Virus record (IMG/VR): IMGVR_UViG_3300042448_001903
Location: 1 to 64,000 of that record
DNA: 64,000 nucleotides
DNA from: a virus
Lineage: Duplodnaviria > Heunggongvirae > Uroviricota > Caudoviricetes > Crassvirales
Strand: one strand, 5' to 3'
Positions 16,265 to 54,943 of this stretch are shown one piece after another; position 1 is the stretch's first letter; each line of letters starts with the position of its first letter. The position numbers and the translations under genes were made by a program. The notes beneath the pieces are model-generated. The model ran no database searches, was not told the origin of the DNA, and was given only the letters and a program-made list of their open reading frames with translations.

Positions 16265-16272
16265 ATCAAATA

Positions 16273-17758: not shown

Positions 17759-17793
17759 ATTGTTAAAAGTCTCGTTTATTGGTTTTCGGGACT

Positions 17794-17828: not shown

Positions 17829-17870
17829 AACCATTTTAGTTAAACTATATAACTAGATTAGTTAAATTAA

Positions 17871-17903
17871 TTTGGTAAATATAAAAATAAATCCCTATCT
17901 TTA
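17871..17903 (+). promoter_or_regulatory. candidate promoter TTTG-N21-TATCTTTA (one mismatch to TAnnTTTG) upstream of 17929 gene
   Basis: TTTG lies at 17871-17874 and TATCTTTA at 17896-17903, within a 170-bp intergenic gap after a terminator. Confidence 0.35.
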
Positions 17904-17928
17904 CACTAATTTTAACTAATTATTACTT

Positions 17929-21319: not shown

Positions 21320-24300
21320 ATGGCTGAAAATAATCAATCCGCTGGTAATATAAGAGAAGAGTATAACTTAGCAAGAATTGGTCTTGATATGGATAGCTCT
21401 GCTAATCAAATAGCAAAGGGTAAGCTTTCTTATGCTCTTAATGCTACTATAGAGAATTTTGATAGTGACAGTGTTAACTATCAAAATGAACCAGGAAATG
21501 AACTATGCTTAAACTTTCCCCAAGACTATCATCTTATTGGGACACATTTTATTCCAGAAAAAAATAAACATATATTCTTTCTTACAAATCCATCTTCAGG
21601 AGCTTCTGAGATTGGGTATATGAATAATAATGATTGTACCTACCATACATTAGTATCTGCCACTTGTCTAAATTTTAATATAGACAACCCTATTCATAAA
21701 GTGGTACATAAAATAACTAATTGTACCACTGAAATTTATTGGACGGATGGTTTAAATCCAAGAAGATATTTAGATATTGAAAACATACCATATATTTTAT
21801 CCTACCCAATAGCTTTAGGTGGAAATATTAATTTATGTGGAATAACAGAAACAAAAGAACTAGATTGTAATAAATTAAATGTTCAACCCAACTTTGAAAT
21901 TCCACAACTAGAAGTGGTGGATATTAATACAGGTGGAGAGTTGCAAGCTGGAACATATCAATTTGCAATACAATATTGTGATGCTAATGGGAATTCATAT
22001 ACATCATATTATTCTGTTACTAATCCAACACCTATTTTTGATGCAGCTAAAACTACATTAAATTTTAACTATACGGTGGGAAGATCTATTGTAATTAATG
22101 TCTCTAATTTAGATATATCAGGACTGTTTAAATATTTTAATTTAGCAGTGATAAAAACCGTTAATGCTATTTCTTCCGTAGAATTAGTTGGAACATATTT
22201 TATAAATAATGTTAGTAGAGAGATTACCTACACTGGTCAAAATGTAACACAAATTAGACTTACAATTAATGACATTTTTGAAAAATTTCCTTATTATGAA
22301 ATAGCAGAAGATCTTACAACAGTGCAGGATGTACTAGTGTGGGACGGTCTTACATCTATTGATAGAATTAACTATCAACAAATTGCTAATCAAATAGATC
22401 TTAAATGGCAATCTTATAGAATTCCTAACACTGAAACATACGCTGATGAGTTAAATGCCACTAATTATAGAGGATATTTAAGGGATGAAGTGTATGCATT
22501 TGAAATTGTTTTTTTATTAAAAAATGGAAAACAAACAGATGGGTTTCATATTCCTGGAAGAGCTATTACATTTAATGAAACTTCTGAACCATTAGTGCCT
22601 ACAACAAACCCTGATTTTGTTGGAGACCCTGAATTTGAATCTGGTGGTGTAGGATATAGTGCTTATTGGAAAATTTATAATACAGCATCTGTTACAGGTT
22701 TTAATCCTGAATACTTAGCAGCTTTAAATAAAATTACATATAAAGGTCCATATCAATATGGAGAGTTTGCTTATTGGGAATCTACAGAAAAATATCCTTG
22801 TAATATAGATGTATGGGGTGAATTAGCAGATCAACCAATTAGGCACCATAAGTTTCCTGATGTATTAGTTAGTCCTATATTTGAAAGTCCTGTTTATTCA
22901 TTAGGACCAGGTTTTTCACCAGTGATGCAAAATGATGCTATATTCCCAATAGGAGTGAGGATAGATATTCAACAAGTTTCTCAATTAATATATACATCTA
23001 ATTTAACAAAAGAACAAAAAGAAAGTATTGTTGCTTTTAAAATTGTTAGAGGAGATAGAAGTACAAACAAATCCATTATATCTAAAGGGATATTAAGGAA
23101 TGTAGGGAAATACAATAGAGAGGGGACAGACTATTATTATCCAAACTACCCATATAACGATCTTAGAAAAGATCCTTTTATACTTTCAAAAAGTAATGCC
23201 TACAAAGATGAGTGTAAGGTGTATACAGGCACACCTAGTGTAAGTGGTACATATCAATATACAGATTGTTACACAAATACACCTATTACAGCTAACATGA
23301 CTGCTGGTACTCTTATTACAATTACATCTCTATCCACCCCAATAGCTTTAACAGGCACTGTAACATTTACAGAGTCTACCACTATACCATTATCAGATTA
23401 TTACATTACACCTGAATTAGAGGGATTTTCTTCTGATGATTCTAAATACAGACATGTGTTTAATTCTCCAGAAACTTTATTTGGACAACCTTATTTAGGG
23501 AATGTCCTTAAATTAGAAAATATTATTCTTGGTGGCGGAAAGGCTCATTTTGTACAAGTTAGAGAACATGCTTTATATAAATTATTAACAAAAGAGGCTC
23601 AAAAGGATGCATTAAACTCTAGTACAGAAATAGCTTCTATAACAGGAACATTAGATCCTTTAGTTTTATTCACTGCTTATCAGGCTTATCTACAAATTTA
23701 TATTAACGGTATTACAAGAAGAAATTACGCATATTCTTTTAACTCTATTGCTAGCTATGATTATAGTGCTGATATAATCAATAATGTAGGAGTGAAACAA
23801 AGACCTCTGGCGGTTGCTCAGTATATTTTTGAGGGAGTACAGGCTATAGGAGAAACTAATGGTATAAATATAAATAATTATAATAGAGAGTCTTCTGTAT
23901 TTTTAAAAACTATAGAAACTAGAAATGGTAATGTTGTAACACCTCTTCCATTTCCAGATAAAAGTCCTTCTATTGCTCCTGTAGGGGTGAGTCTTTTTAC
24001 AGATAATTCTAGATTTGTAGCTTCTGATGATGATAAATGTTCCACTCCTAGCGAGGAAAGGCATATTGATGTTATCTCTTATTACGGATCAATGAAAAAT
24101 ATATTTGTTAACCAATGGGGACAAATATATTCATATGACACAATTGATACAGGTTTCCAAAGAAATATAGAAATAGATAATATTCTTAATGGGCAGCCTT
24201 CAATAGATACAGTTTTTGGTGGGGACACTTTTATAGGAAAGTTTGCTTTTAAAACTAAACTTCCTTTATTTATAGATGATAGAGTGAATGCTCCAGATGA

Positions 24301-27300
24301 TTCAGATATATTTTATGATGAGGTGGGAAATATAGCCTACCCTAAATATTGGTTTTCTTCTAGATCTATTCTTAGTGACTACACTCCAACAGGAGGCACT
24401 GTAATGAAGAATATTATATCTATTAAAGCTCACAATTTTGATTGCCCTAATAGTCAACTTCCTGCACCAACACCTGGGCCTCCTGTTGTTGTAAATCCTA
24501 ATAGAACTTATTATGATGGAAAAATGTATTTATATGCTTATGGTATTCCATACTTTTATGTGGAATCTTCTATTAACGTAGACCTTAGACAAGCATTTAA
24601 CAACCAAGAAGGAGATTTTTATCCACATGTAAGTACAGGTATTCCTGATAACTGGCTACAAGAGTCAGTTGTACCTATTGCTCAAGATAATACATATTAT
24701 TACAACGTAACATATTCAAAACAAAACAAGGAAAATCTTTTTTCGCATCTTCCTAATAACTGGGAACCTAAAGTGTGTTTTACAACTTTTCCTTTCAGGG
24801 CAATATATTCTGATCAACAGGAGAGTTTTACAAACTCAGGAGTGAATAACTGGTTGAACTATAGTGCAACTTCTTATTTTGATTTTCCACAAAATTTTGG
24901 TAAACTAACATCATTAGATGGTATTCAAAATAAAGCTGTATTAGCAAGATTTGAAAACAAGTCTTTGCTTTACAATACAATGCTTACTGTACAAACAAGC
25001 AATCCACAAGCAGCTTATTTAGGTAATGATACATTATTTAAATCAGCTCCTCCAATTGATTTTGCTGAAACAGATCTTGGATATGTAGGAAGTCAAAATA
25101 AATTTTTATTAAAAATTCCTCAAGGACAAATTACTGTTGATGCTAAAAGAGGACAAATATTTTTAATTACTGGTAACCAGGCATCAGATCTTTCTGCTTT
25201 TGGGCTTGGAATGAATAAGTTTTTTACGGATCATTTAGCTTTTGAAATACTCAGATACTATCCAACAGTAGACACAGACAATCACTTTAATGGAATTGGG
25301 TTACATGGAGTGTATGATAGTAAGTTTGATAGAGTGATTATATCAAAATTTGATTATATTCCTCAAAGTTCAAATATTAAATATGACGAAGCAACAAAAG
25401 ATTTTTATGTAGAAAGAGTTGTAAATGGTGTTACATTTAAAGATGTAGTGAGTCTGTCTGATACAAATTATTTCTGTAATAAATCTTGGACACTTTCTTT
25501 TAACATGAACACCAAAAGTTGGGTAAGCTTTCACAGTTATATTCCAAACTTTTACATAGCAGAAAATAATTTCTTTTATTCAGGAATAAATGGAGGATGC
25601 GATCTTGAAGCTCTTGCTTTTGAAGAACTTCCTCCTACAACCACTACTACTACAACAGTTCCAATACCAATTGATTTTTCTTTTGTTTACACTTGTATAT
25701 GTGTAGGAAATGGTTGTGGAAGAATCTCAGTGGGCCCTACAGGAGTTTATCCAGAAGGATATATTACTGGCGGTAGTGGAGAATATGATATAAACTCTTT
25801 CCCTTATTCTAGTGAAAGTGGAGCAATAAATGGAGTGTTTAGTCTTAATGTCACTCATTTACAAAACGATGAGGTGGATAATGGAACTTGGTATATTGCT
25901 GTTAGAGACCATAACAATCCTTCTAACATAACGGTAAAATCTATAGAAATTAATTGTAGTAACTATCCTGTAGTATTAGGACCTTCAGGTGGAACAGAGT
26001 TTGAAGCTTGTTCTTTATATCCTGAAGGCCCAACAACAACATATTATACCACTACATCTAGTTTAACAGTAGATCTCACTATTTTTTATACTGATCCAGC
26101 ATGTACAATTCCTTTTAACGGTGGTACATTATATTATAGCGATGGTACAAATTATTATTTAATTGGACCAGAAGGAATGTTGTATAATTTCTTTACATGT
26201 CCTCCTCCTTCTACAATAAATTGGTCTTTATCTGAAGCAGATTTAGCAGGGGAATATTTTGTTGATGGTCGTTTATACATAGATTACACAGATGTTAGTG
26301 GTAACCTTCAAACTTTAGATGTTGATACACCATCAAGTGGTAGTTTAGCAGTGAAAGAGAATACTACATTCACTGCGTGGAATACTTCAAATTTTAGGGG
26401 TTTTAATGTTCCTGTTGATAGTTCAACTATTACAATAACAGTTGATGGTATATCTACAAATGTTAGCGGTGGAACAATTACTGATTTTTCAATAATAACA
26501 GCTACAGCAGCTCCTGTAACCACTGTATTAAGCGGTGTTTATACAGTTGCAGCAACTACTTCAGTGGTTGTAACAGATCTTAGTAACTGTATTTGTGTTG
26601 GTTATGGTGGACAGGACACTTGTTGTGAAGCAATAGCTGGATATAATGAAGGTTGTATTCCAGATCCTGGATGTTATGGTTCATCATTAACTGTTTATAG
26701 TAGTTGTGGAAGTAGTTTTGGAATAGGATGTACAGTTTATTATGATCCAGCATTAGAATTTCCTGTATTGCTATTTAATAATAAATGGATATATGACGGA
26801 ACTACTTGCTGGCATGTTGGCCCAGACACTGTAATAGATGGTGAAGGAAGTTGCACTACAACTACTACCACTACATTACCAGCTGAAATACTCACTAGTT
26901 TTAACAGTGGTACAGGATTAAATAATGACGCATGGACAGTGGATTATGATTCTAATAATAATTATGTTGTTGGTGGAGATTTCACTGCTTACAATGGTGT
27001 TACATATAATAGAATAATTAGATTTAATTCTTCAGGGGTTCCTGACCCAACATTCACTGGATTAACAAGTGGATTTAATGGAAGAGTGTATAAAGTTAAA
27101 ATACAATCAGATAATAAAATTTTAGTTGGAGGAGCTTTTACAAGTTATAATGGTACTGTTGCCAATAGTATAATTAGATTAAATTCTGACGGTACAATAG
27201 ATTCTTCTTTTGTATATGGTACAGGATTTACAGGACAAGTGAGAGATATTGATATTCAAACTGACGGTAAAATAGTAATAGTAGGAGCATTTACTAATTA

Positions 27301-28009
27301 TAATGGTTCTTCTGCCAATCGTATTGTTAGAGTGGATACAAATGGAGGTATAGATACCACTTTAGTAACAGGCACTGGGATTAATAACGAGGCTGGTTCA
27401 GTAGAAGTTTTAAATAATGGAGATATTATAATTACTGGGGCCAATATTAATAACTATAATGGAACAGTAATATCAAAAATATTTAAGATAAGTTCCACAG
27501 GAAGTTTTATAGTGAATTATAATTTAGACCCTAGTACAAGTGCTTACCCAACAGTTACACATCAAACTATTGATAATTCAGTGATAACGGTAGGAGAAAA
27601 TAATACTGGCTCCCCAAATTATTGGATTGTTCCTGTTAAAATTAATACAGATAACACAATTAATAATACATTTAAAACTAATGCTGGATCTGGATTTGGT
27701 TCTTATCTATCCACTTCTAATTTAGGATATGCATTAAGTGGGGAGTCTAATGGTAAAATAGTTATAGGAGGTAAGTTTACAAGTTACAATGGCAACACTT
27801 CTGGAGGAATTGTAAAAATAAATTCAAACGGAACATATGATAACTCTTGGCCTATTTCCACTGGATTTTACACAGATTCTTCAACTTTTGTTAGGAGTAT
27901 AAAAATAAATGAAGCACAGAATTTAGTGTACGTTGTAGGTTCTTTTACACAGTTTAACGGACAAACTAGACAAAGAGTGGCAGTCTTACATTTAAATGTT
28001 GCCCCTTAA
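21320..28009 (+). CDS. giant virion protein (2229 aa) with internal poly-Thr linkers and a C-terminal beta-propeller-like repeat domain (about 7 x ~50-aa repeats); candidate tail/muzzle or receptor-binding protein
   Basis: The C-terminal ~350 aa hold tandem repeats with the motif GG.FT.YNG.....I.R.N..G..D..F, resembling the delta-60 repeat beta-propeller family of Bacteroidota. There are two T7 runs, at nt 25637-25657 and 26855-26875. Confidence 0.55.
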   Translation: MAENNQSAGNIREEYNLARIGLDMDSSANQIAKGKLSYALNATIENFDSDSVNYQNEPGNELCLNFPQDYHLIGTHFIPEKNKHIFFLTNPSSGASEIGYMNNNDCTYHTLVSATCLNFNIDNPIHKVVHKITNCTTEIYWTDGLNPRRYLDIENIPYILSYPIALGGNINLCGITETKELDCNKLNVQPNFEIPQLEVVDINTGGELQAGTYQFAIQYCDANGNSYTSYYSVTNPTPIFDAAKTTLNFNYTVGRSIVINVSNLDISGLFKYFNLAVIKTVNAISSVELVGTYFINNVSREITYTGQNVTQIRLTINDIFEKFPYYEIAEDLTTVQDVLVWDGLTSIDRINYQQIANQIDLKWQSYRIPNTETYADELNATNYRGYLRDEVYAFEIVFLLKNGKQTDGFHIPGRAITFNETSEPLVPTTNPDFVGDPEFESGGVGYSAYWKIYNTASVTGFNPEYLAALNKITYKGPYQYGEFAYWESTEKYPCNIDVWGELADQPIRHHKFPDVLVSPIFESPVYSLGPGFSPVMQNDAIFPIGVRIDIQQVSQLIYTSNLTKEQKESIVAFKIVRGDRSTNKSIISKGILRNVGKYNREGTDYYYPNYPYNDLRKDPFILSKSNAYKDECKVYTGTPSVSGTYQYTDCYTNTPITANMTAGTLITITSLSTPIALTGTVTFTESTTIPLSDYYITPELEGFSSDDSKYRHVFNSPETLFGQPYLGNVLKLENIILGGGKAHFVQVREHALYKLLTKEAQKDALNSSTEIASITGTLDPLVLFTAYQAYLQIYINGITRRNYAYSFNSIASYDYSADIINNVGVKQRPLAVAQYIFEGVQAIGETNGININNYNRESSVFLKTIETRNGNVVTPLPFPDKSPSIAPVGVSLFTDNSRFVASDDDKCSTPSEERHIDVISYYGSMKNIFVNQWGQIYSYDTIDTGFQRNIEIDNILNGQPSIDTVFGGDTFIGKFAFKTKLPLFIDDRVNAPDDSDIFYDEVGNIAYPKYWFSSRSILSDYTPTGGTVMKNIISIKAHNFDCPNSQLPAPTPGPPVVVNPNRTYYDGKMYLYAYGIPYFYVESSINVDLRQAFNNQEGDFYPHVSTGIPDNWLQESVVPIAQDNTYYYNVTYSKQNKENLFSHLPNNWEPKVCFTTFPFRAIYSDQQESFTNSGVNNWLNYSATSYFDFPQNFGKLTSLDGIQNKAVLARFENKSLLYNTMLTVQTSNPQAAYLGNDTLFKSAPPIDFAETDLGYVGSQNKFLLKIPQGQITVDAKRGQIFLITGNQASDLSAFGLGMNKFFTDHLAFEILRYYPTVDTDNHFNGIGLHGVYDSKFDRVIISKFDYIPQSSNIKYDEATKDFYVERVVNGVTFKDVVSLSDTNYFCNKSWTLSFNMNTKSWVSFHSYIPNFYIAENNFFYSGINGGCDLEALAFEELPPTTTTTTTVPIPIDFSFVYTCICVGNGCGRISVGPTGVYPEGYITGGSGEYDINSFPYSSESGAINGVFSLNVTHLQNDEVDNGTWYIAVRDHNNPSNITVKSIEINCSNYPVVLGPSGGTEFEACSLYPEGPTTTYYTTTSSLTVDLTIFYTDPACTIPFNGGTLYYSDGTNYYLIGPEGMLYNFFTCPPPSTINWSLSEADLAGEYFVDGRLYIDYTDVSGNLQTLDVDTPSSGSLAVKENTTFTAWNTSNFRGFNVPVDSSTITITVDGISTNVSGGTITDFSIITATAAPVTTVLSGVYTVAATTSVVVTDLSNCICVGYGGQDTCCEAIAGYNEGCIPDPGCYGSSLTVYSSCGSSFGIGCTVYYDPALEFPVLLFNNKWIYDGTTCWHVGPDTVIDGEGSCTTTTTTTLPAEILTSFNSGTGLNNDAWTVDYDSNNNYVVGGDFTAYNGVTYNRIIRFNSSGVPDPTFTGLTSGFNGRVYKVKIQSDNKILVGGAFTSYNGTVANSIIRLNSDGTIDSSFVYGTGFTGQVRDIDIQTDGKIVIVGAFTNYNGSSANRIVRVDTNGGIDTTLVTGTGINNEAGSVEVLNNGDIIITGANINNYNGTVISKIFKISSTGSFIVNYNLDPSTSAYPTVTHQTIDNSVITVGENNTGSPNYWIVPVKINTDNTINNTFKTNAGSGFGSYLSTSNLGYALSGESNGKIVIGGKFTSYNGNTSGGIVKINSNGTYDNSWPISTGFYTDSSTFVRSIKINEAQNLVYVVGSFTQFNGQTRQRVAVLHLNVAP

Positions 28010-28035
28010 TTTAAATAAAAGTTTAATATATATAA

Positions 28036-28902
28036 ATGTCTAAAACAATACTCATAAAATTAACAAAGGCTGGTACTAGAACAGGTCCTTTTACAATCTC
28101 AGATAACTATGGGAATGTATTGGGAACTGATGTTTCTAAGGACAATCTTATTGCAGGGTTTCCAGCAAGTGTTGATGATGCTGTTACTGTTATTGTAATA
28201 CAATCCACAGGAAAATGTAAAGCAAGAATTAATATTCCTGTTAAACAGCTTTATTTGGATGAGGTGGCTAATATAAAATTTACAAATACAAACACAGCTT
28301 CTTTATGGAGACATTTAACTAATACATTAATTTATAATATTTACTACGGAGATATACAACCGTATGTAATTGAATATCCATTTTCTTATCAATTTCAAGA
28401 TGAGATATTACAGAATGTTAAGGATTATACAAAAGTGTATCAATATCTTCCTATTCCAGATGGGGTGTTTAATAACAATGCTAAAATAGAAATAAACAAT
28501 ATTTATTTTAATAAAGCTGTTTTATACAATGGTCAACAGAGCACAGGACTTTTAGAACTAGTGCCTAAACCAAAAAACAACTTAAAAGAGTATTTAAAAT
28601 ATCCTTTATATAATGCAGAAAGTAAAACTATAACTTTTACTAAGTCTGATAACTTCTACCAATACAATACATTTTGGTCTTTAGTGAAGAATAAATCTAT
28701 ACCTTTGTTCTCAACAGGATGTGAGTCTTTATCAGTGGATAAAATAATTAACCAACCTAATATGGACTATTCTAAGAGAAGCTTTAAAAAGGAACCATTA
28801 AGAGCTAAAGAATTAAAAATAAGACATATATTAGATGATAGAGCTGATGCTCATTTAATCTCTCAATTTATTGTGGCACCTGCTCAAATTAGTTATAAAT
28901 AA
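28036..28902 (+). CDS. hypothetical virion protein (288 aa)
   Basis: The ORF is in the track. Confidence 0.45.
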   Translation: MSKTILIKLTKAGTRTGPFTISDNYGNVLGTDVSKDNLIAGFPASVDDAVTVIVIQSTGKCKARINIPVKQLYLDEVANIKFTNTNTASLWRHLTNTLIYNIYYGDIQPYVIEYPFSYQFQDEILQNVKDYTKVYQYLPIPDGVFNNNAKIEINNIYFNKAVLYNGQQSTGLLELVPKPKNNLKEYLKYPLYNAESKTITFTKSDNFYQYNTFWSLVKNKSIPLFSTGCESLSVDKIINQPNMDYSKRSFKKEPLRAKELKIRHILDDRADAHLISQFIVAPAQISYK

Positions 28903-33068: not shown

Positions 33069-33154
33069 TTAATTCGATTATACCAGATTAATAAAAACTG
33101 TTATATCTTTTGGTATATAAAATATTTTAAATTACTTTTGTTAATTCTTATAAT

Positions 33155-47900: not shown

Positions 47901-48384
47901 CTCTGACTATGTTGTGTTTACATGGGAAGTGGGAAATAAATATGAGAAAGAAGCTATGAGAAAGAAGGGTGATTATTCTTATATTAAAAAAGGACTTTTC
48001 AAAAAAATATATAGCGGAGATATACCATTTACTAATGAATATACAATGAATAAAGATGGACAAAATATTGTTATTACTGAATATATTTATAAAATGGTTA
48101 ATGCTTGGGGAGACTCTTTCAGGGCTGTAGAAATGTATGATGTAGCTAAAAAATCTAAGATAGATAATGGATTTTTAAAAGTGGAACAAGAAAAAGAAGA
48201 TGATGAAATTTTATCATATTTAGATGAAAATTTAGTATCTTTGGAGTCTACAACTACTGAAAAAACAGTGTCTCTTAAAGATGGAAAAACATATTCATCT
48301 GAGCAATTAAACACAAAAATGCTTGTAGACATGGGCTACACATTGGCTGAAGCAGGAACAATAATTAAAAATAATAAATGTTAA
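35911..48384 (+). CDS. giant protein (4157 aa) carrying a candidate RNA-polymerase catalytic motif DFDID (aa 3253-3257); putative virion-packaged crAss-like RNA polymerase fused to an N-terminal ~1900-aa extension
   Basis: GSDFDIDKLSIYF is encoded at nt 45661-45699. DFDID is, to my recollection, the variant of the universal DxDGD metal-binding motif in gp66, the 2180-aa virion RNAP of crAss-like Cellulophaga phage phi14:2. The context (a block of giant ORFs next to tail genes in a Bacteroidota phage) matches crAss-like cargo and RNAP genes. Confidence 0.55.
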   Translation: MSDQNFLDWANNIKNEGLARLDEGIPQGVGPSGSGGENRNNPLEDLQRARMEAFGMEDTSKYAYSTQETSKRYPKTFRNVDNEELYAQGQAWTNKMINGVGKGLALTGTTFLQSTAGLVNGVANWAQTGKFSSFYDNDFNRSLDEFNQDLEDKWANYYTKEEKDADWYSPKKWFTANFFWDGIIKNMGFSAGAALSGGVYASVLKALPLTSKLFAAGKSAEALVATEEALLAADKGASMFGKIKSISDKYLSTYNSLNAGGRAVVAGLATTGEAGFEAYNNSNEFRKKKIEEYKAQNFGLAPTGEDLEKINNEAENVGTSSFLLNTALLTATNYIQFPKILGASYKAEKGIVNGLTKEVADVTKDAAGNLVKAPSFFKNRVLSTLNNIRPYTFSISEAFEEGAQFAIQSGTQDYYNKKYRGASADFIDSLKEGVKQTLTTNEGMENVLIGGLSGALMMAKGKIQESREKAKDTAEFIKKANEWKFSDFTKETISAVNRGTAIQEDREKALRQGDVLESKDLEQDYIINYLTPRIKYGRMDLVRSDIEDYRKLAMTEEGFAQLKAEGKALEGDTREQYLQRIENLEQTADSIKSLYQSINLRYGNLITKDGKPVYSPETINKMIYAATKVADYDKRIPQLSGSLEAINIDVDTVINDVVAGSSDSFNAAMAEIDALGKNLLPEKVADLKIALEDVAELSARRAKFLDEYNDIKNNPEKYTEEEEEEFAPDTKIKEKQIVKIKTKDGEEDIEVGTEYYLGSVVSYSKDGKEVHNFPKLTILGENEDGTIRIKGSTGIIKNISKEELASYKLGKVSDTEKNKKAKFYMDNINTVYEHYGIKVNGQPAKGRLQYSPKEGILLFVYKDAKGKIRTKEIVGQDFKAKEGYQHGMIKAFGTLTAVQQKSEEEFAAERDARIEARRASRLEILTNLFDNLSAKLDKTNTLIAQKKEQVDRIVEEMKVLEEKISSGAITKKNNFKSSTNKAIKAANRLSRMKEDLRLEIEALEAERDEIEFNQSYVADMAQNIDEFPEEGKDLLEDLNEQALNLNLLQESVGKQINALSKLMDQVDGALKTAVDFALDLIKKFEAKYPNLPYTPLGLVEFLNKDLSAKGVYPDYQSYLQANPNLLSDLSEFERDIADIDELDVIPNERSLEELRKEMEGLQNQLKEVEKEIKAKELILNTFEEVAKKHKQQKEQEARLAKNEEFKQAILGTMVADQQTLQYDETYEPDAKKDDISIVTSTKVPSKSDKPHHIRANKFGNNFPTLPNKANIRGVLVTINNQASLIPGLIDRLFGEGTPEQKAGVIALVMVNTDGELVDVNGEVIPEGVDKLDNAIYQVMPDEGLEWSAEYSKSGKPSSMFRSTTPDNVKKALIEQYKTWRDGILSTVDLVQYRIDASFGILQNEKYTDDKGVEQTNYRAKNSVEEAGLVPKGLENNNVIVLRTTEGAEENGSVTFTNAKGRPLLKTANGLVKLNNRKFNEKEASLIYNMILRLSRNVEKDGNAKSADSLVILDWLKSVVYWGVPKVVDGNRKNPGYNSIWFEKDADGILKLFLSGKGGNIPFGPLSIQENQDNLMSLIQDMYNNVNATIINKSWNEPYSEIIGVKKDGSLEIKTWPNYQSYLLSNKDADGNKRNAENIPLTTIARPLKNEEDVNREGVYFTITDNADKFVIPKTVVTTPKVLTPTAPAAPVAPTPAAKIVVDGYTFDGEAKNNITLLGKYNINFSYDAIKGVFQGELSGDGIEKAIADLNAPEEQIKDAFAGSIVKTLAPQIEEYKKKVAEQTAPVAAEIISEEAKTEIASEGMTESDLDKIRRQMMESSDEDGPVFREKIAKEIEKFEGENWQKVEKWLKENFPNVPVYRVKNVIQATNGRQAWGMFQDGAIYIYENAEVGTVYHEVFEAVWKMFSDAEEQANVLAEFKARKGSFIDRPTGKEVKYSEATNQEAKEQLAEEFRDYVMYKKIPGKPTSGRPFILKLFADLVSFIKEFFTGNKAGSNTEKLFSKIGNGYYKQYSPYHSALSFAKEGVIDIEEAIANAGAEFSIIGMNGQERHDVIQNMTYLTLKNIFRDNKSFFTIPNINKTELYIKLKDQVQKDILKTVSSTKALIEKGTFTEKQGAPHIEKSLALWKAVEDNWDEFKFKHEEYLRGYSIEFDENDNATLTDENNSGKSDYQDARKIDNFKKANAAIKMLLSTVARVDRDGNMDRSTVNGAKLIPTSEVFMKVMNQVHSAKTIEEMLQGLKELGLKDNNYKTLYERLTKSAITVKGIDYSNLTEPHEAQLLASFWKTFKKMNADVKAVFILSNDDVVIGDSNLSSAARQLRSDFISQIVDAIKTKKSSYFVYDDKTRRFKGEPKSVPKTLLSASARIAFLEKLGISFTEEELKSLNSDKLKVFNTAVDGIRTSIEQAKEIATISGKVLDIEGQLLKLATIKAIITTPEFDSTYFNLNGERVQSFIGTNPGSDLYDVLSQVNNLNDVPAQYQYLLTDSFVKNSVILNKMFNLETGEKREDIENYLSIGYVDGTINEQSGKKKESSKLTYRERLIQEINLNLNGYYMNLVPGDASMEWMAYMGNHVSVKRLRATGMEDVNKIFKGYFISELLLSRDVNRNTKETKTRKSTDLRFFKPILGEKLHNDIVKETGTPEEVYKKYESKINAALKSFIEEDVNKFRNNLLSYGIINKTDLGWEVENIALSESVFENIDDLNRELTALNINFMINNIELHKLLYSDPYQYSDELKRIKNFLSPRQRLLGSDNINSLLNNVWNKGFKKGDLGYTDFNKNYFKTTTLADIVGVIDLPGYKEYEETDGSGIISFKAYRNFRIRSGEWNENEELQYKFDIKFEEAAKSGASKEELQKLLNKNPAAKSAYTPVKPIVAGNKDNGKNYNDVMLDKFALYPLSYRVMYEINASSNALKLYDKMQEENIDYVVFKSARKVGAEKTNSVYNEDGSFNTNEFEGVFNVPFDIMSVQSEVPSKDTPLVTRGSQVTKLITMDYMEAGVPVDFEETKTFPERYKAWYALDEEGRIKESTLYKEIKNNQNLLEAIATEGYNSLLNKLHITETTDGYVIEPDNVEKVAEFLRQELLKREVNDNISEAVRNYAQGSVILEATPAYQQIRNILYSIADKEVISPKISGGLKVQIPAALLESTKTELREINGKLGYTSDTLEFYKDEDGKRVCEIMVGRWFKSDLSDEELLKYLNETPEGQKILSGLAYRIPTQKQNSIDVFKIKRFLPKEFGDSVVIPSALVQKVGSDFDIDKLSIYFKNVFKNAKGNIEIVPFFGIDPNNKNKYEDIFFDILQSKIDKAEAKKISTADLQSLFSDISLGISSDKTANKWIPIFKQMFEKETEDGKLLVADIEEIFIKRLEKLGKKLSELTNWDVQQILLEEFKDKMYKESLENEYIESCEKLVSHPKNFKRLTSPNSADQLKDLSKKISDKLGVGAFNYDSTGNMLNRVFMSRLRQAFVSGKYAIGIAAVSQTNHSLNQRSPIYIDKNKLAIQDAADREWLGDAEINFEQYNSIEVDGEKVPTLSMIENAEGQDISDINGQFIDGYVDISKGPWIMELGATPNVASTWLFLAKIGVPIDTIAYFMNQPIVRDYLKSIERSGYSWLFIGDIFEDVISKYDSSITKPTKIPSKSKLWDMIGEGENLSPEQKADQRFILSEFVKYAKMANQLYLVTQGSNFDTASFNDPFLVFKKMEQLKKAKTSIISSVDDILENSFIGNLSDLLLKLRNALSTILVSDQTNVRGVMEKVLLPYINESDRDFVKISQKAVNDLFDWAVQNDRDLNTMVQRILLENNNVAKQMSDFIVDVKKSSKHPLKDNILINSLVPVFSQKLENGTNNLKIVGRDNKVYDQNQIIYAFEELKQYFKGIKSPLYGNLVRLAVLQSGLNRSPISFTSLIPYEDFKEIYNKTLSKLETIPNLNDFYKLGVFQRNNWNDGDVVPSRRLVKKQDQFGNWRYKNFDFFRNLSGFNKPMETGDIPQLIKFNTKSREADSDYVVFTWEVGNKYEKEAMRKKGDYSYIKKGLFKKIYSGDIPFTNEYTMNKDGQNIVITEYIYKMVNAWGDSFRAVEMYDVAKKSKIDNGFLKVEQEKEDDEILSYLDENLVSLESTTTEKTVSLKDGKTYSSEQLNTKMLVDMGYTLAEAGTIIKNNKC

Positions 48385-48387
48385 AAT

Positions 48388-51300
48388 ATGGCATGTCCTA
48401 ATATAAATCTTGATTCTTGGAAATTGTTAGTAGCAGCTAGAGGAGAGAATGTTGCTTATGCTTTATGGGATCTTTATGAAGGAAATGTTCCTGAAAGTGA
48501 GAGTAAAAGTTCTATTGTTAAAGCTGGATTAAAATCTGTAGATGCTTTACAATCTGAGAAGGCTATTAAACTTTTTTCTTCCTTAGAAAAGAATAGAGTG
48601 AAAGGAGATGCTTTTTGGAACAAGGTACAATCTGATCTTAGTATTCCTAAAGACCAAATAGAACTTCTCAAATCATTTAATACAACAGATCGTAATGAGT
48701 TGATTACCAACATGTTAGCTAATTATAGTTATGCTATTGAGATTAATGTTGCTAAAAATAAAATAGGTTCTGATATTTATGGTAAAAGTTCTGAACCTAA
48801 ACAAATAACCGATGAAAATTCTGCTATGGCTTTAGGAGCTGAAGTTGGGGATTATTTTATTGAATATATTACAGAAGATGGGGATCCTGATATAGCAATT
48901 TTTAAAACATTAGAAGAGGCTAACAGAGCTTTTAATACTCAAAGAGCTGCTAATAATAGTTCTGTATATTCTAACCTAACAGTTCCAGGAGGAACCAATT
49001 ATACAGAAAATGAAATAGCTACACCAGCTATTACTCCTTCTATTAAAGGACATGCTCAGTTTGCTACAGATCAAGGTATTGGTTGGTTTAGAAGTGATGA
49101 TTCTATAGTTGGTATTCAAAATAGAAAAGCACTACCTCAAGAAATAGAAGAAGTTAGAGATACTGAAGGTGCTCAAGCAGCTAAAGAATTAGAAAAAAAT
49201 GGCATTCCTGGTGTTGGAGGTACACCTACTACAACTCGTAGAATACTAGAAGTACAATCTGATCTTTTTCAGAAGGGTAGAGATAGTAAAGTTCTTTCTA
49301 AAAAGCTTGATATTAAAAAAGTAGGAGATACATTTATATCTAATGGTGAAAAGTTTACAGTTACAAATATTGACACAGATTCTAATCTTTATGAATTAAT
49401 TACAATTTCAAATCAAGAAGGTAAAACAGCTACTTTAAGAAGAAGTGCGTTAGAAAAAAGATTTGATGAAAGAGGAGATAATAGTTCAGATAATCAATTC
49501 CTCCAACTTCTAAACAAAAACTCTAACTGGGTTACATTCTTTATTAAATCTATTCTACAAGATAGTGCTAAAAAAGGATATGAGAAAGTGTTATTCCCTT
49601 CTGGTAATACAGCTAGTAAAGTAGAAGGACATACAACATTAGAAGAGTTTAAGAAACAAAAAGAAAATAGAATTAAAGAACTTGAAGAATCTAGTATTTT
49701 AAAAAATAAAAATGTTGATGGATTTTATTATATTCAAAGATATTTAGAAGATGAAAATGGTAATGAGGTTTTAACTTGGAGAAAAGTAAGCAATGAAACA
49801 GGTAGAGAAAAAACAGCTACTAAAGAAGAAATTGAATCTTTAAAAAGTAAGTTTTCAGAAGAAACTAAAAATGAAATAAATCAACTTAAAAAAGAGCTTG
49901 AAGATGTTGAAAAAAATGGTTTTGGTGCTTTAAAACCTATATACAACTTCTATGAGAACACTGTAAAGAATATTTTAAATAAACAATACGGAAAGGATAA
50001 TGTAAAACAAATTACAGATGAATATGGTAATACATGGAATGAAGTAGAAATTGTTCCTGAAAGAGAACAGAAACAAATTCTTTTACAAAAAGAAGGAATG
50101 CCTGCTTCTAAGGCTTCTGCTGAAACACTTTCTAAGGTGAAGGAAGCTGCTAAAAAAATGGGTATTAGTATTCAGCAGCTTTCTGATTATTTAAAAGGTA
50201 ATAAAGACGTAACAACAAAAGGAATAAATGGACTGGCAGATCTTGTTAGAGGGATAATTGCTGTAGCAGAGGGGAAAGAAGATGTTGCTCTCACAGAAGA
50301 AATGGTACACGTAGCAACAGCTATTTTAGAACAAATGGACCCAAGACTTGTTACAGAAATGATTTCTAAAATAGATAGATTTAAGATATATAAACAAGTC
50401 TATGATCAATATAAAGATGTATATAAACTTCCTAATGGAAAACCAGATATACGTAAAATAAAGAAAGAAGCTGTAGATAAACTTTTAGTGGAAGTAATTA
50501 TTAATAAAGCAGGAGCTACAGAAGCCTATCCTGAATTAATGGAGGAAGCCACTCAATCATTATTTAGAAACTTTTGGAATAAAATATTAGATCTTATAAG
50601 AGGTGTATATAGAAAATCCAACATATCTATATTTGAAGAAGTGGGAGCTAGAGTGATTGAAGGTGAGGTGGGAGGAACCATTTCTGATATTTCTGAAGGA
50701 GGAATATTTTACCAACTATCTGATGCACAAAAGAAAGTGCAAGAAAAAATACAGGAAACAAGAAATTCTATTAACAAAGTGGTTAGTGATGAAAAGTCTG
50801 ATGAAGTGTTAGCAGATTCAGATGAGTCTACCAACTGGTATGAAATATCTCTTCCTGATGGTACAAAACAAAAAATAACCAAAAGGGTGACAGATCTTGT
50901 TAAAGAGTGGTATAAGAAAAGATTTAAAGATAAAAAATTCACTCCAGAAGAAAAGGCTTTTAACGAGATGAAAAGAAAATATGGGGTGGAGGGGCATGCT
51001 GATTTTGAAGAAATACATAATAGATATTATAATAAAGATGGTACAAAAAAGACCACTCCTGATCCAAGACCTGTAAAATTCAATCTTCCTTCTGAAGAAA
51101 TGTATAATATGTTGGAAAACTATTATGTAAGTCTTTTACAAACATTAGATAAAGATGCATTAGTTTTCTCGGAAGTTATAGTTTACAATCCTAAAGATAA
51201 AAGAGCTGGTACAATAGACTTCTTAGCTGTAGATCCTTCGGGGAAAGGACATATTCTTGATTGGAAGTTTATGCAAATAAACGGTGAAGATGTTGCATGG

Positions 51301-54300
51301 TTTAAACAAGGAGCCTTTGATATTCAGCTTGGTACATATAAAAATATTCTTAAAGACTTTTATGGAATAAAAGAATTTGGAATGAATAGAGCTATTCCAA
51401 TAGCTATGGATTTTGGGTATAAAGAAAAAGGCAATAAGAGTTCTGGCCTTGAATTAAAAGGAATAGCTATAGGTTCTATAGATAAAACTAAAATACAAGA
51501 TCTTAGACTTGTGCCTGTTTCTGAACAAACAGAATCTACAGGATATGAAGATCTTGATAATATTATTAAAAAACTAAATTCCATGCTTAAACAAATAGGC
51601 AAGGAAGAAGTAACAGATGATGATGAGCGTTTATTTAAAATAGAGCGTTTAAACACTATTAGAAAAGCTGTTCGTCTTTTACAGGGACAAAATAATATTG
51701 CTTCTTTAATTGATGTTGTAGGTATTATGAGAGAAGAGGGTGACCAGCTATTAAATGATTATAACACTATTTATAAAAATAGACCAGCTTCTTCTAACGA
51801 TTCAAATAATAAAGAACTTTCAGATTTTGCAGAGAAGATGAGAGTGCACTTAAGAATTATTGATGTTTTTGAAAATATAGGAAGAGACATAGGCCACCTT
51901 GTGTATACAAAGGATATGTTGGAAAATGCTAAGACAGAAGAAGAAAGAGAAGATGTAGCAAGAAGAAAAGATATACATGATCAGTTGATGGCCCAATCTA
52001 ATGCTATTTACAGATCAAAAGAACAATTAACGAAAGCTGCTCAGGATTTTGCAGATAAACATGTAGGGCAAAGAAACCTTGTATTTGGACTTCTATCCCC
52101 CGAAGCTGTTATTAAAGGACTTTCTTCTAATTTTAGAGGTATATCAGAACTTCCTTCTAAAGCATTACAATTGTTATACAAAGTGGTGAGAGGTGCCCAA
52201 GGAGAAGCTTCTAAAGCATCGTTAGAAAGAGTACAAAAACTAATGGATATTAGGAAGAAATTAGCAGAACAGGGGGGAGATCTTAGAACAATAGTGCAAC
52301 AGATATATCAAAAGGATGATAAAGGAGGTATTGTTAATAAACTTATTCATAGATATAGCAGAAAATTCCATGAAGAAGTGGATGCAAAAGCTAAAGAAGG
52401 TGGAGATAAACAATGGCTTTTAGACAATATTGATGTAGAGGAGTATAAAAAAGAAGCTAATAAACGTCTTGAAGATCAAATTAAAAAAATAGAAAGACAG
52501 ATATATACAAGTGATAAAAATGAGAATGAGGCTATAAGAGTTAAAAATATTAAAGAAGCTCAAGAGATGTGGGATATTGATAATAAAAACTTTAATGGTT
52601 GGAATAACTATATCATTAAAAGACATCCTCTCCCAAAATGGTATTCAGAAGAATACAAAAACATTCTTAAAAATCCAATTCTTTTAGAACTTTATAATTT
52701 CATAGGTAGTATAAATGAAGAAGCTAAAGAGGCTGGATATATCACTAATAAAGTGATGAAAACATTCCTACCGTTTGTTAGGAAAGGAGCTGCTGAAGAA
52801 CTAGCTTGGGATCATAGTATTTCTCCTTTAAAGAATTTTTCAGAGAGTCTTAAAATGCAAACAGATGATGTAGGATTTGGAAGTTTTAATGAGCTTACAG
52901 GTGAACTAGAAAATTCTGTTCCTAAGTATTACACATATGATTTTACTAGAAAAGATGGTGTAAATGATTATTCTGACGTAAGCGAAGATCTTTTTAAGAA
53001 TATGATTTTATACATCCAACAAATGGAAAAGTATAAATATCTTTCTGCTGTAGAAGGACAATTACAATTAGTAAAAACTGTAGAGCAATTTAAAGGGCAT
53101 TTAGCTACAGATAGATCAGCAAATGTTGTTAAACAAGGTGGTAAAATAATAGAAATACCAGGAAATGAAGAAAACACTAAAATGTATGATGACTTTTTAA
53201 GAGTGTTGTTATACGGACAAAAGTATGTTCTTTCTGATACAGACACTCCTTTAAATGTAGGTAAAGTGTTAAACTTTGTAAAAAATGGTGTAAACACTAT
53301 TACAGGCAGAGAAGTATTTAAAATAGATGAGGAGCCTTCTGCTACATCTTTAGTAAAAACTATGGACGCAGCAAATAGAGCATTCCAATTAAAAGCTTTA
53401 GGGTTTGAATTTATATCTGGAGCTGTAAATATGTTTGGAGGTAATATACAGGTGGCTACACAAGCTGGTGATTATTTTAAAGCAAGAGACTTTCTTAAAA
53501 ATCAAGCTAAATTAGCTGTACAAAGATTTGATAATGAAGAAGATAGAGAAATATTTGTACAATTAGTTAATACATTCATGCCTCTAAAAGATGATCCATC
53601 TACAGATATATATAAATATGAAGCAGGGATGACTGCTCTCACTAGAAAAAATTTAGGGGATATGCTAATGGTTTTTATGAGAAAACCAGAACAACTTATT
53701 GAAAAGTCTATTTTTGTCACACTTTTGGAAAACATGATGGTGGATAATGGTAGAATTGTTAATATTAATGATTTTGTAAAAAACAAATACAAAAATAGAT
53801 ATAAATCCTCTTCAGAATATAAACAGTCTAAAGAAGCTATAAAAGCAGAGGTGGAAGAACTTAAGAAAACAAAGTCTATAGCTGTAACTAAAAAACTTGT
53901 AAACGGTAAATTAGAAATTCCTGGATTAGATCTTTCAAATCAAAGGGAGTTACAAAGATTGACAGAACTAACTAGAAGAATTTCTAGAAATGCAACAGGA
54001 GGTATGTCTGACGGAGATATTAACAGAATGTCAATGTCTGTTTGGACAAATAGTATGATGCTATTTAAAAGCTGGATACCAAAACTTGCTGATACACGTT
54101 TCTCAGAATTTAGAAAAGTGAGCGATGATTTTTCTGTAACAGTGGATGAAGATGGTGTTAAAGGGGAGAAATATGATATAGGAAGAATTAGACTTTTGGC
54201 TTATGTTTTAGGAACATCTATTCGTGATAAATCAGCAAATATTACGAATTTAATTCAAATGAATGACAAGGGAATTGCTTTGATAGATAAAATGTATGAG

Positions 54301-54840
54301 GATTTTGCTGAAAAATACGAAAAAAGAACAGGTGAAACTCTTAACATGACTAAAGAAGATTTTGCTGATATGATTAGAACCAATCTAAGAAACGAGATTA
54401 AAGAATTAGCTATTCTTGGGGCTTTATTAGGTGTGATGATTTCTCTAGGATTTATGGCTCCTGATGATGAAGAAGATAAAGCAACCAAAAATTTCTTTAG
54501 GTATTCACAAAGAGTGGTAGATAAATTTGTTGGAGAGCTTTCTTTCTTCTATAATCCTGTCAATTTTGAAAGTCTTTTGAGTGGAAGTATGTTCCCAGCT
54601 ATAGGACTTATAACAGATTATACTAGGTTTACTAGTCACTTTGTTAGAGAAGTGACAGGATTTGATATTACAGATCCTACATTATCTGCTGAAGAGGTGA
54701 GGAAAAAAGCTATGCCTATTAAATATGCTGCAAAAGCTTTACCTGTAGCAAAGTCTGCTTTAACATATGGAGCAATTTTAAATAATGAGTTTGCCAAAGA
54801 ATTTGATATAACTATACAAAAAGAAAGTAGTATGAAATAA
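48388..54840 (+). CDS. giant virion protein (2150 aa), function unknown; candidate cargo/ejection protein
   Basis: The ORF is in the track, 3 nt after the stop of the 4157-aa gene. A possible PD-(D/E)xK-like element (FLAVD...ILDWK) lies around nt 51216-51270. This is weak evidence. Confidence 0.5.
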   Translation: MACPNINLDSWKLLVAARGENVAYALWDLYEGNVPESESKSSIVKAGLKSVDALQSEKAIKLFSSLEKNRVKGDAFWNKVQSDLSIPKDQIELLKSFNTTDRNELITNMLANYSYAIEINVAKNKIGSDIYGKSSEPKQITDENSAMALGAEVGDYFIEYITEDGDPDIAIFKTLEEANRAFNTQRAANNSSVYSNLTVPGGTNYTENEIATPAITPSIKGHAQFATDQGIGWFRSDDSIVGIQNRKALPQEIEEVRDTEGAQAAKELEKNGIPGVGGTPTTTRRILEVQSDLFQKGRDSKVLSKKLDIKKVGDTFISNGEKFTVTNIDTDSNLYELITISNQEGKTATLRRSALEKRFDERGDNSSDNQFLQLLNKNSNWVTFFIKSILQDSAKKGYEKVLFPSGNTASKVEGHTTLEEFKKQKENRIKELEESSILKNKNVDGFYYIQRYLEDENGNEVLTWRKVSNETGREKTATKEEIESLKSKFSEETKNEINQLKKELEDVEKNGFGALKPIYNFYENTVKNILNKQYGKDNVKQITDEYGNTWNEVEIVPEREQKQILLQKEGMPASKASAETLSKVKEAAKKMGISIQQLSDYLKGNKDVTTKGINGLADLVRGIIAVAEGKEDVALTEEMVHVATAILEQMDPRLVTEMISKIDRFKIYKQVYDQYKDVYKLPNGKPDIRKIKKEAVDKLLVEVIINKAGATEAYPELMEEATQSLFRNFWNKILDLIRGVYRKSNISIFEEVGARVIEGEVGGTISDISEGGIFYQLSDAQKKVQEKIQETRNSINKVVSDEKSDEVLADSDESTNWYEISLPDGTKQKITKRVTDLVKEWYKKRFKDKKFTPEEKAFNEMKRKYGVEGHADFEEIHNRYYNKDGTKKTTPDPRPVKFNLPSEEMYNMLENYYVSLLQTLDKDALVFSEVIVYNPKDKRAGTIDFLAVDPSGKGHILDWKFMQINGEDVAWFKQGAFDIQLGTYKNILKDFYGIKEFGMNRAIPIAMDFGYKEKGNKSSGLELKGIAIGSIDKTKIQDLRLVPVSEQTESTGYEDLDNIIKKLNSMLKQIGKEEVTDDDERLFKIERLNTIRKAVRLLQGQNNIASLIDVVGIMREEGDQLLNDYNTIYKNRPASSNDSNNKELSDFAEKMRVHLRIIDVFENIGRDIGHLVYTKDMLENAKTEEEREDVARRKDIHDQLMAQSNAIYRSKEQLTKAAQDFADKHVGQRNLVFGLLSPEAVIKGLSSNFRGISELPSKALQLLYKVVRGAQGEASKASLERVQKLMDIRKKLAEQGGDLRTIVQQIYQKDDKGGIVNKLIHRYSRKFHEEVDAKAKEGGDKQWLLDNIDVEEYKKEANKRLEDQIKKIERQIYTSDKNENEAIRVKNIKEAQEMWDIDNKNFNGWNNYIIKRHPLPKWYSEEYKNILKNPILLELYNFIGSINEEAKEAGYITNKVMKTFLPFVRKGAAEELAWDHSISPLKNFSESLKMQTDDVGFGSFNELTGELENSVPKYYTYDFTRKDGVNDYSDVSEDLFKNMILYIQQMEKYKYLSAVEGQLQLVKTVEQFKGHLATDRSANVVKQGGKIIEIPGNEENTKMYDDFLRVLLYGQKYVLSDTDTPLNVGKVLNFVKNGVNTITGREVFKIDEEPSATSLVKTMDAANRAFQLKALGFEFISGAVNMFGGNIQVATQAGDYFKARDFLKNQAKLAVQRFDNEEDREIFVQLVNTFMPLKDDPSTDIYKYEAGMTALTRKNLGDMLMVFMRKPEQLIEKSIFVTLLENMMVDNGRIVNINDFVKNKYKNRYKSSSEYKQSKEAIKAEVEELKKTKSIAVTKKLVNGKLEIPGLDLSNQRELQRLTELTRRISRNATGGMSDGDINRMSMSVWTNSMMLFKSWIPKLADTRFSEFRKVSDDFSVTVDEDGVKGEKYDIGRIRLLAYVLGTSIRDKSANITNLIQMNDKGIALIDKMYEDFAEKYEKRTGETLNMTKEDFADMIRTNLRNEIKELAILGALLGVMISLGFMAPDDEEDKATKNFFRYSQRVVDKFVGELSFFYNPVNFESLLSGSMFPAIGLITDYTRFTSHFVREVTGFDITDPTLSAEEVRKKAMPIKYAAKALPVAKSALTYGAILNNEFAKEFDITIQKESSMK

Positions 54841-54884: not shown

Positions 54885-54913
54885 TTGATAATAAAGAGAA
54901 AAAGGTATCTTTG
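54885..54913 (+). promoter_or_regulatory. Bacteroidetes sigma-A type promoter TTG-N18-TATCTTTG upstream of tail-fibre gene
   Basis: TATCTTTG lies at 54906-54913 and overlaps the ATG at 54911 that the track used. This argues that the real start is the ATG at 54944. Confidence 0.45.
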
Positions 54914-54943
54914 CATCTTAATCTCGCCTTAATATATTTAATT

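Follow-up and report, generated by a model that had tools for sequence, protein, structure and literature searches.

The giant proteins of crAss-like phages have been described in two cultured phages, crAss001 and phi14:2. In crAss001 they are encoded by gp44-gp50, which follow the ring protein genes, and the reference proteins were detected in virions by mass spectrometry (Bayfield et al., 2023, PMC10172136). One of them, gp45, has a portal-binding domain (residues 425-552) and an N-proximal glycine-rich transmembrane segment (residues 136-158; PMC10172136). The phi14:2 counterparts (g071-g065) were also detected in virions by mass spectrometry, and gp66 is a biochemically validated RNA polymerase (RNAP) with a connector at residues 1095-1238 and the catalytic DFDID at residues 1361-1365 (bioRxiv 10.1101/2020.03.07.982082); this virion RNAP (vRNAP) was crystallised (PDB 6VR4; Drobysheva et al.). 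RNAPs of this family combine two double-psi β-barrels, the connector, a bridge helix and a trigger loop in a single chain, with DFDxD in the second barrel. A zincin-like HExxH metallopeptidase motif was reported for orthologues of phi14:2 gp65. In this paper we looked at positions 1 to 64,000 of the IMG/VR virus record IMGVR_UViG_3300042448_001903, a stretch of 64,000 nucleotides (the window), which carries five giant open reading frames (ORFs), A to E, on its + strand. Our reading, to which we give a probability of about 85%, is that this part of the window encodes the distal tail and the injected proteins of a crAss-like podophage, in a variant architecture. It is a known kind of system, in which genes were consolidated (gp47 with the RNAP, and two genes in B), the muzzle was divided and modules were inserted (an extension of A and an insertion in E).

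An earlier note on this stretch, made from the letters and the ORF translations, had described five consecutive, mostly motif-poor ORFs of 2229, 1388, 919, 4157 and 2150 aa and had taken them as the ejection or cargo block of a crAss-like phage. The sizes and positions agree exactly with the ORF listing, and the translations of A to E contain no internal stops. At a GC content of ~32%, about 7-8% of random codons are expected to be stops, so an open frame of 4157 codons has a chance probability of about e^-330, which is vanishingly unlikely; the giant ORFs are also kept as ORFs across dozens of independent metagenomic contigs. Strict succession does not hold, as a 288-aa ORF (28036-28902) that belongs to the system lies between A and B and was overlooked. 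The description as motif-poor is correct for Pfam and PHROGs but not for BLASTP and profile comparison with the reference crAss proteins, which were informative. The reading as a cargo block largely stands, but not for A. By homology this ORF is the muzzle of the tail, a gatekeeper with a structural role, and does not belong to the ejected cargo.

The crAss-like nature of the module, also proposed there, agrees with its surroundings. Crassvirus-type PHROGs match the upstream genes for the terminase large subunit (TerL; 4e-85), the portal (6.5e-101) and the major head protein (1e-32), and directly upstream of A are genes that match the Pfam models CrAss_Ring_2 and CrAss_Ring_1. The block genes are all on one strand, between the ring proteins and the tail-fibre genes. 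Since ring proteins precede the giants and tail-fibre genes come after them, the giants are found at the position of crAss001 gp44-gp50 and phi14:2 g071-g065.

Analysis of ORF D shows similarity to two separate reference proteins, one after the other. Its N-terminal half is a full-length, colinear homologue of gp47 and gp67 in BLASTP: crAss001 gp47 53-819 aligns with D 46-716 (8.6e-34) and gp47 2069-2236 with D 1813-1995 (1e-10), and matches were also obtained to phi14:2 g067 (1e-10) and to XAI97382 (2e-24) of Leptolyngbya phage Lbo-JY46 (PP438436), an unclassified member of the Caudoviricetes that infects a cyanobacterium and is the nearest cultured relative. In the C-terminal half, phi14:2 gp66 817-1788 aligns with D 2658-3760 (E 3e-25) and crAss001 gp50 881-1826 with D 2575-3624 (E 4e-22), both by BLASTP and spanning ~1100 aa. 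When a 24-sequence clade profile of D 2600-3800 was searched against the whole PDB, the sole match was 6VR4, the phi14:2 gp66 DNA-dependent RNA polymerase (E 1.9e-25). The sequence GSDFDIDK is identical in D and gp66, and all of the 46 clade sequences have GSDFDIDKL without variation. The hidden Markov model (HMM) alignment covers gp66 809-1762 in several stretches, of which 1189-1762 is the strongest, and takes in most of the connector together with the positions of the catalytic motif, the bridge helix and the trigger loop. Because both ends of gp47, as well as gp50, g067 and g066, align colinearly and GSDFDIDK is identical, we read D as one polypeptide that consists of a gp47-type RNAP-associated protein followed by a two-barrel DFDID RNAP. 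The earlier note expected the cargo to carry an RNAP but missed that the predicted RNAP is part of the 4157-aa ORF, in fusion with a gp47 homologue.

Other searches of D were silent. Profile searches of D 60-800 and D 1800-2130 against the PDB gave no match, and an AlphaFold2 (AF2) model of D 2100-2700 had a predicted template modelling score (pTM) of 0.30 and no Foldseek match, so that the fusion boundary was not located by structure. Pfam silence on D and E is uninformative, because no Pfam families exist for crAss001 gp47, gp49 and gp50 or phi14:2 gp65, as scans of these four proteins showed. Single-sequence phmmer of all five giants against the PDB found nothing relevant; it also misses the gp66-D pair, which BLASTP finds at 3e-25, and was discarded. 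An ORF of 150 aa lies antisense inside D (40158-40610, - strand) and is probably spurious.

One question that is raised by such a long frame is whether errors of assembly or frameshifts produced the giant ORFs, above all D and the fused B, by joining neighbouring genes. There are contigs that would fit this explanation: L005 carries the D equivalent in three overlapping frames, and the long-read contig L004 is heavily fragmented. However, in 60 independent IMG/VR loci anchored on the catalytic region of D (46-76% identity), every complete DFDxD ORF runs in one frame, with lengths of 3,734-4,828 aa, and where the downstream sequence is long enough, an E-type ORF (~1,400-2,400 aa) nearly always comes next. 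The frame changes of L005 lie within conserved blocks and fit sequencing errors in that contig, and the equivalent of B is two genes in most relatives and a single ORF in several, with clean boundaries. We therefore consider an artefact extremely improbable. Since every complete locus has a single frame, the clade alignment has no dip in conservation or occupancy at the junction (D residues 2000-2200) and the frame changes of L005 fit sequencing errors, the gp47-RNAP fusion is real and extends across the clade. There are precedents, as fusion of such giant crAss proteins was mentioned before (bioRxiv 10.1101/2020.03.07.982082) and variable boundaries of these giants were noted by Yutin et al.

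A different explanation of the fused frame is that D is a polyprotein from which cleavage, either ahead of packaging or once D has been ejected, releases the gp47-like part and the RNAP as two proteins, with the same end products as in crAss001. Cleavage could be due to the conserved HExx[E/H] site that lies shortly before the junction, or to the putative zincin-like domain of E. Among polyvalent proteins delivered with the virion, no domain is commoner than the zincin-like peptidase, for which autoprocessing was proposed (Iyer et al., 2017, PMC5512222), and the motif GT.YHE.F[E/H], ~200 aa ahead of the D junction, is conserved in the 46 clade sequences and aligns with HEAFH of crAss001 gp47. 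We regard such cleavage as possible but doubtful. A working analogy is found in the Schitoviridae (N4-like phages), in which a giant packaged RNAP of ~3,500 aa is ejected with partner proteins and is fused to extra domains, including zincin-like peptidases (PMC5512222). The N4 vRNAP is a T7-like single-subunit polymerase whereas D is predicted to be of the two-barrel DFDID type, and the resemblance is one of convergence, not of membership.

ORF E is predicted to belong to the gp49/gp65 family. BLASTP aligns gp49 175-391 with E 582-802 (1.4e-5). In hhalign, a profile of E 1100-2150 against a small gp49/gp65 family profile places E 1234-2076 on gp49 551-1281 (98.6%, E 5e-16, 672 colinear columns), and E 585-780 matches gp49 179-375 with a probability of 86.6%. 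These alignments indicate that E is a gp49/gp65 homologue, colinear over the conserved core, and the C-terminal hydrophobic helix with its acidic patch aligns with phi14:2 gp65 1278-1345. The same-strand phi14:2 genes g067, g066 and g065 are thus colinear with the N-half of D, the C-half of D and E. Compared with crAss001 gp49, E has an insertion of ~500 aa, whose occupancy is 0.1-0.3 in 42 clade sequences and which is common to L151 and a separate ORF in L117. At the zincin-like site E reads EEMVH (TEExVH in the clade); crAss001 gp49 has EEFAH, against the canonical HEIMH of phi14:2 gp65, and no canonical HExxH occurs anywhere in E. PDB profile searches with E 585-1100 and E 1100-2150 gave no match.

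At the other end of the block, ORF A is by homology the Crassvirus muzzle protein, the gatekeeper of the tail tip. Residues 18-315 match Pfam PF25731 crAss_MUZ (E 1.8e-37, 129.5 bits, cut-off 27), residues 789-1358 match phrog_37948 (2.7e-111), phrog_15100 is matched as well, and BLASTP finds crAss001 gp44 at 2e-4. The Lbo-JY46 muzzle (XAI97387, 1654 aa) aligns with A 38-1423 at 31% identity over ~1500 columns. A starts at 21320, directly after CrAss_Ring_2 and CrAss_Ring_1 and ahead of the cargo genes, which is the position of a muzzle. Beyond residue ~1423 there is a C-terminal extension in which poly-Thr linkers and Cys-rich segments accompany a β-propeller of at least five repeats (Pfam DUF5122, E 3e-46, five stretches). 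Among 30 IMG/VR relatives the muzzle ORF varies from 1513 to 2570 aa and this extension was found in L007 only. Because the muzzle length varies and the extension is common to one relative only, it is probably a surface-exposed host-binding module that acts as an exchangeable tip.

The 288-aa ORF between A and B completes the muzzle. Its residues 73-288 align with the C-terminal end of the Lbo-JY46 muzzle (residues 1444-1654; E 3e-25), where A does not match, and it covers positions 1587-1781 of the 1783 of phrog_15100, of which A matches the N-terminal end. Of the 30 relatives, 27 have a homologue of ~290 aa after the muzzle ORF. Since the C-terminal ~210 residues of the Lbo-JY46 muzzle and the end of phrog_15100 align to the 288-aa ORF and not to A, the muzzle is split into two polypeptides here, a split that is kept across the clade. 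The reference muzzles are single polypeptides (1371 aa in crAss001, 1654 aa in Lbo-JY46); the split is a variant and gives no ground to deny muzzle homology.

ORF B is a fusion of two clade genes. At most clade loci, separate ORFs of 313-800 aa match B residues ~14-210, and the two ends of B correspond to two different Lbo-JY46 genes, the N-module to XAI97386 (hhalign probability 97.9%, E 4e-13). The C-module forms a family of 1,069 clusters at 50% identity and matches crAss001 gp45 in hhalign at three places, in colinear order. The first, B 671-715 on gp45 130-177 (E 7.8e-6), is a Gly-zipper segment with a charged helix and covers the predicted transmembrane helix of gp45; the second, B 790-893 on gp45 424-505, has 37% identity over 82 columns (E 1.4e-5, domain-only) and is the start of the portal-binding domain; the third is weak. 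The portal-domain score was 36.3, against 11.7±2.4 (maximum 24.2) in 300 shuffles and at most 18.1 for seven other crAss001 proteins. The Gly-rich membrane segments of B did not show up in a Kyte-Doolittle scan with a threshold of 1.7. With crAss001 gp45 and gp46 as queries, only matches of at least 86% identity were returned, which made poor profiles. Together, the alignments suggest that the C-module is a probable distant homologue of cargo protein C1 (gp45).

ORF C matches Lbo-JY46 XAI97383 (BLASTP 6e-20; hhalign 99.7%), and its conservation in the clade is confined to the N-terminal ~200-400 aa. The Pfam model of gp46, PF25712, has no match in C or in 13 clade C proteins, a C-family profile compared with gp46 gave a probability of 0.1% in hhalign, and no similarity was found by hhalign between the B and C profiles and gp46 or phi14:2 g068-g070, the latter also by BLASTP. 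The comparison with crAss001 gp44-gp47 and phi14:2 that the earlier note had proposed thus gave counterparts of gp44 and gp47 and, suggestively, of gp45, but not of gp46.

The homologues of B, D and E (gp45/C1, gp47, the gp50/gp66 RNAP and gp49/gp65) are virion proteins by mass spectrometry in the two cultured phages, which agrees with the view of the giants as virion proteins in the earlier note. It could also be argued that the block is a non-packaged intracellular transcription or replication apparatus, or is host-encoded. D does include a polymerase, D 1848-2116 has a tblastn match on a gene labelled 'DNA helicase' in cr50_1, and an exonuclease-like gene (17929-19152) is found within the structural module. 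Yet the stretch labelled as helicase is homologous to the C-terminus of gp47, and the label lacks Pfam support, B has a C1 portal-binding-type domain, and the one-strand block lies between ring and muzzle genes and tail-fibre genes on contigs that are phage genomes of about 95-125 kb. Together with the mass spectrometry of the homologues, this makes a non-virion role very unlikely. A host-encoded origin, which the earlier note had named as a possible refutation, was rejected because of the crAss-type TerL, portal and major capsid protein (MCP) PHROGs and the CrAss_Ring_1 and CrAss_Ring_2 context.

Several results count against the distal-tail and injected-protein reading. The cargo protein 1 model PF25725 has no match in B at E up to 0.1, nor in 16 clade B-type proteins among the 29 B and C proteins scanned, and hmmsearch of a B-domain HMM against gp45 returned only a compositionally biased Gly-zipper match, with the portal domain not above shuffles. 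Relatives of C were detected in the clade and Lbo-JY46 only, none in Crassvirales, and its cargo role is proposed from gene position. The proposed zincin-like sites of D (HExxE) and E (EExxH) are non-canonical, and an AF2 model of that D region has no metallopeptidase match. Lbo-JY46 has no recognisable DFDxD protein, so that even relatives differ in the make-up of the module. Finally, packaging in the virion, exit order and activity in this lineage are predicted by homology to crAss001 and phi14:2.

If the distal-tail and injected-protein reading is correct, the following mechanism can be suggested. The muzzle, made of A and the 288-aa protein, would gate the tail at its tip, and the capsid and the tail barrel would contain B, C, D and E. 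When infection starts, the muzzle would open, and B, and probably C, would exit first, partly unfolded, to build a conduit across the envelope. Next would come the D chain, of ~470 kDa, and E, threaded out partly unfolded ahead of or with the DNA, after which D would refold and transcribe early genes without the host RNAP. The positions of all features are collected in Table 1.

Table 1. Positions in the window of the giant ORFs, their predicted parts and the adjoining structural genes.
Feature	Position	Strand	Length	Basis or remark
Tail barrel ring protein 2 homologue	19155-19880	+		Pfam PF25702 CrAss_Ring_2, E 1.2e-18; phrog_9863 virion structural
Tail barrel ring protein 1 homologue	20365-21294	+		Pfam PF24228 CrAss_Ring_1, E 9.6e-10; adjoins muzzle as in crAss001
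ORF A	21320-28009	+	2229 aa	
A, predicted muzzle core (crAss001 gp44 homologue), residues 1 to ~1423	21320-25588	+		Pfam PF25731, PHROGs, Lbo-JY46
A, hypervariable distal extension, residues ~1424-2229	25589-28009	+	~800 aa	DUF5122; sequence inspection
288-aa ORF between A and B, predicted detached muzzle C-terminal domain	28036-28902	+	288 aa	Lbo-JY46 muzzle, phrog_15100
ORF B	28902-33068	+	1388 aa	
B, N-module, residues 1 to ~450	28902-30251	+		Separate gene in most relatives
B, C-module, residues 451-1388	30252-33068	+		hhalign to crAss001 gp45
B, Gly-zipper membrane segment, residues 671-715	30912-31046	+		gp45 130-177
B, portal-binding-like domain, residues 790-893	31269-31580	+		gp45 424-505
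ORF C, clade-specific, cargo protein 2 position	33155-35914	+	919 aa	Lbo-JY46 XAI97383
ORF D	35911-48384	+	4157 aa	
D, predicted crAss001 gp47/phi14:2 gp67 homologue, residues 1 to ~2100	35911-42210	+		BLASTP
D, HEVFE in GT.YHE.F[E/H], residues 1896-1900	41596-41610	+		46 clade sequences
D, predicted two-barrel virion RNA polymerase, residues ~2100-4157	42211-48384	+		phi14:2 gp66/crAss001 gp50 homologue
D, catalytic DFDID, residues 3253-3257	45667-45681	+		Aligned to gp66 1361-1365
ORF E, predicted gp49/gp65-family RNAP-associated protein	48388-54840	+	2150 aa	BLASTP, hhalign
E, insertion, residues ~70-555	48595-50052	+	~500 aa	Rare in clade
E, variant zincin-like motif EEMVH, residues 637-641	50296-50310	+		Aligned to gp65 HEIMH
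E, C-terminal hydrophobic helix and acidic patch, residues 2007-2025	54406-54462	+		Conserved in clade
ORF F, Thr/Gly/Ser-rich, tail-fibre-like	54911-58858	+	1315 aa	TTG start, directly after E; phrog_13892/phrog_31460 minor tail/tail protein domain, residues 383-484; composition

By comparing the block with the reference phages it can be seen that the same functions follow the ring proteins in the same relative order as in crAss001. The homology to crAss001 extends to A (gp44), the C-module of B (gp45, distant), D (gp47 and gp50) and E (gp49), with identities of only 22-24%, and no gp46 homologue was detected in the window. The canonical order of muzzle, C1, the position of C2, gp47, RNAP and gp49 is kept, as in phi14:2, and the suggestion of the earlier note that the set might be rearranged does not hold. 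Its other suggestion, an expanded set, does: the block totals 11,131 aa against 8,849 aa in crAss001, i.e., 26% more. The departure from the reference phages is one of gene fusion, split and insertion, not of order. crAss001 encodes gp47 and gp50 separately, on opposite strands, and phi14:2 also has g067 and g066 as two genes, whereas the window has one ORF; the single crAss001 muzzle protein corresponds here to a larger protein with a β-propeller extension and a separate C-terminal piece. Lbo-JY46, the best match for TerL, MCP, the muzzle, the B modules and the N-termini of C and D, differs in having an unsplit muzzle, three separate genes as the equivalents of B and a separate gp47-like protein (1552 aa). 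After the gp47-like gene it encodes a 2748-aa protein (10354-18600, - strand) with a gp49/gp65-like C-terminus (1e-32 to crAss001 gp49) and two HExxH motifs, in which neither a DFDxD motif nor detectable similarity to D was found; Lbo-JY46 may lack a crAss-type vRNAP or have an unrecognisable one.

The idea that the phage represents a distinct lineage agrees with the marker genes. TerL is 41% identical to that of Lbo-JY46, 33% to those of Cellulophaga phages phi17:2 and phi4:1 and 26-28% to Crassvirales, and the MCP is beyond the reach of BLAST for Crassvirales: at E <=1e-5, tblastn found no Crassvirales, only Lbo-JY46 (26.5%) and one unannotated human-faecal fragment (19%). Megablast against 50,697 annotated phage records gave no nucleotide match. 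The MCP gene (10629-12182) nevertheless has at least 596 IMG/VR matches with identities of 96-100%, on contigs that reach ~125 kb, and this is an undescribed, abundant environmental lineage. On contigs with ~97% MCP identity the RNAP catalytic region is just 52-64% identical (for example 3300032229_000040, 3300044614_000224, 3300032213_000610 and 3300008114_000037; paired loci L044/L174, L045/L119, L063/L155 and L074/L156). The closest relative, IMGVR_UViG_3300017917_001220 (L003/L117), compared with 32583-52945 of the window, is a mosaic of blocks with 92-96% nucleotide identity and barely alignable blocks; the latter lie inside C and at the N-termini of D and E, and there is a ~590-nt insertion in D. 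This pattern suggests frequent recombination within the giant genes.

Regarding the host, Shine-Dalgarno-like motifs precede two of the 24 window genes, the leaders are A-rich and TAnnTTTG occurs 50 times against ~37 expected, signals which are compatible with Bacteroidota. Bacteroidota-type metagenome-assembled genomes (MAGs), including Sediminibacterium and Cytophagales, account for 7 of 11 binned MAG matches; the host hints are weak but consistent. As a tentative proposal, and one that we hold to be rather unlikely as a whole, the clade could be a sister lineage of Crassvirales at family level or higher, probably with freshwater Bacteroidota hosts, whose ejectosome is made of fewer, larger chains and whose ~470-kDa gp47-RNAP fusion is injected uncleaved.

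Some other features were seen around the block. ORF F is the downstream limit of the cargo block and lies outside it; the tail-fibre genes come after F. Next to F, two overlapping neighbours (58855-59559 and 59556-60269, ~235 aa each) both match phrog_24074 and phrog_8510 virion structural, and are tandem paralogues or pieces of a larger tail protein. The exonuclease-like ORF (407 aa, 17929-19152; phrog_704 'DNA repair exonuclease', 1e-49) is surrounded by structural genes, with a tail-fibre-like gene on one side and ring protein 2 on the other. A stretch of 516 nt without an ORF of at least 150 aa flanks this ORF, which could be a mobile or moron-like insertion. A 388-nt gap at 15885-16272 opens with a small Cys-rich frame (ATGGCTAATTGTCGTAATTGTGGA...) under the ORF size cut-off, with a CxxC...CxC...CxxC pattern, which may encode a small zinc-ribbon protein. 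After the capsid gene, at 12183-12368, a G+C-rich intergenic inverted repeat CCCCCCACTTCAGGGTGGGGG in the otherwise AT-rich genome looks like a strong terminator or RNA element following what would be the most highly expressed gene. A tRNA scan found no tRNA genes.

These results leave the basic picture of infection by crAss-like phages unchanged. A linker-less gp47-polymerase fusion that is stable across a large clade argues for physical cooperation of the two parts, and it offers a natural single-chain construct for structural work. If the fusion is injected uncleaved, then by a Rosetta-stone argument gp47 and the vRNAP would be one physical unit in all crAss-like phages. In the same tentative proposal, the split muzzle with its swappable β-propeller tip would be the host-range determinant of the lineage. 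The crAss reference framework consists of gut Bacteroidales and marine Cellulophaga phages, and a clade that is very common in environmental viromes and yet outside the 50,697 annotated phage records implies that this framework misses a major branch. The clade is also a good system in which to ask why injected proteins evolve much faster than the shell.

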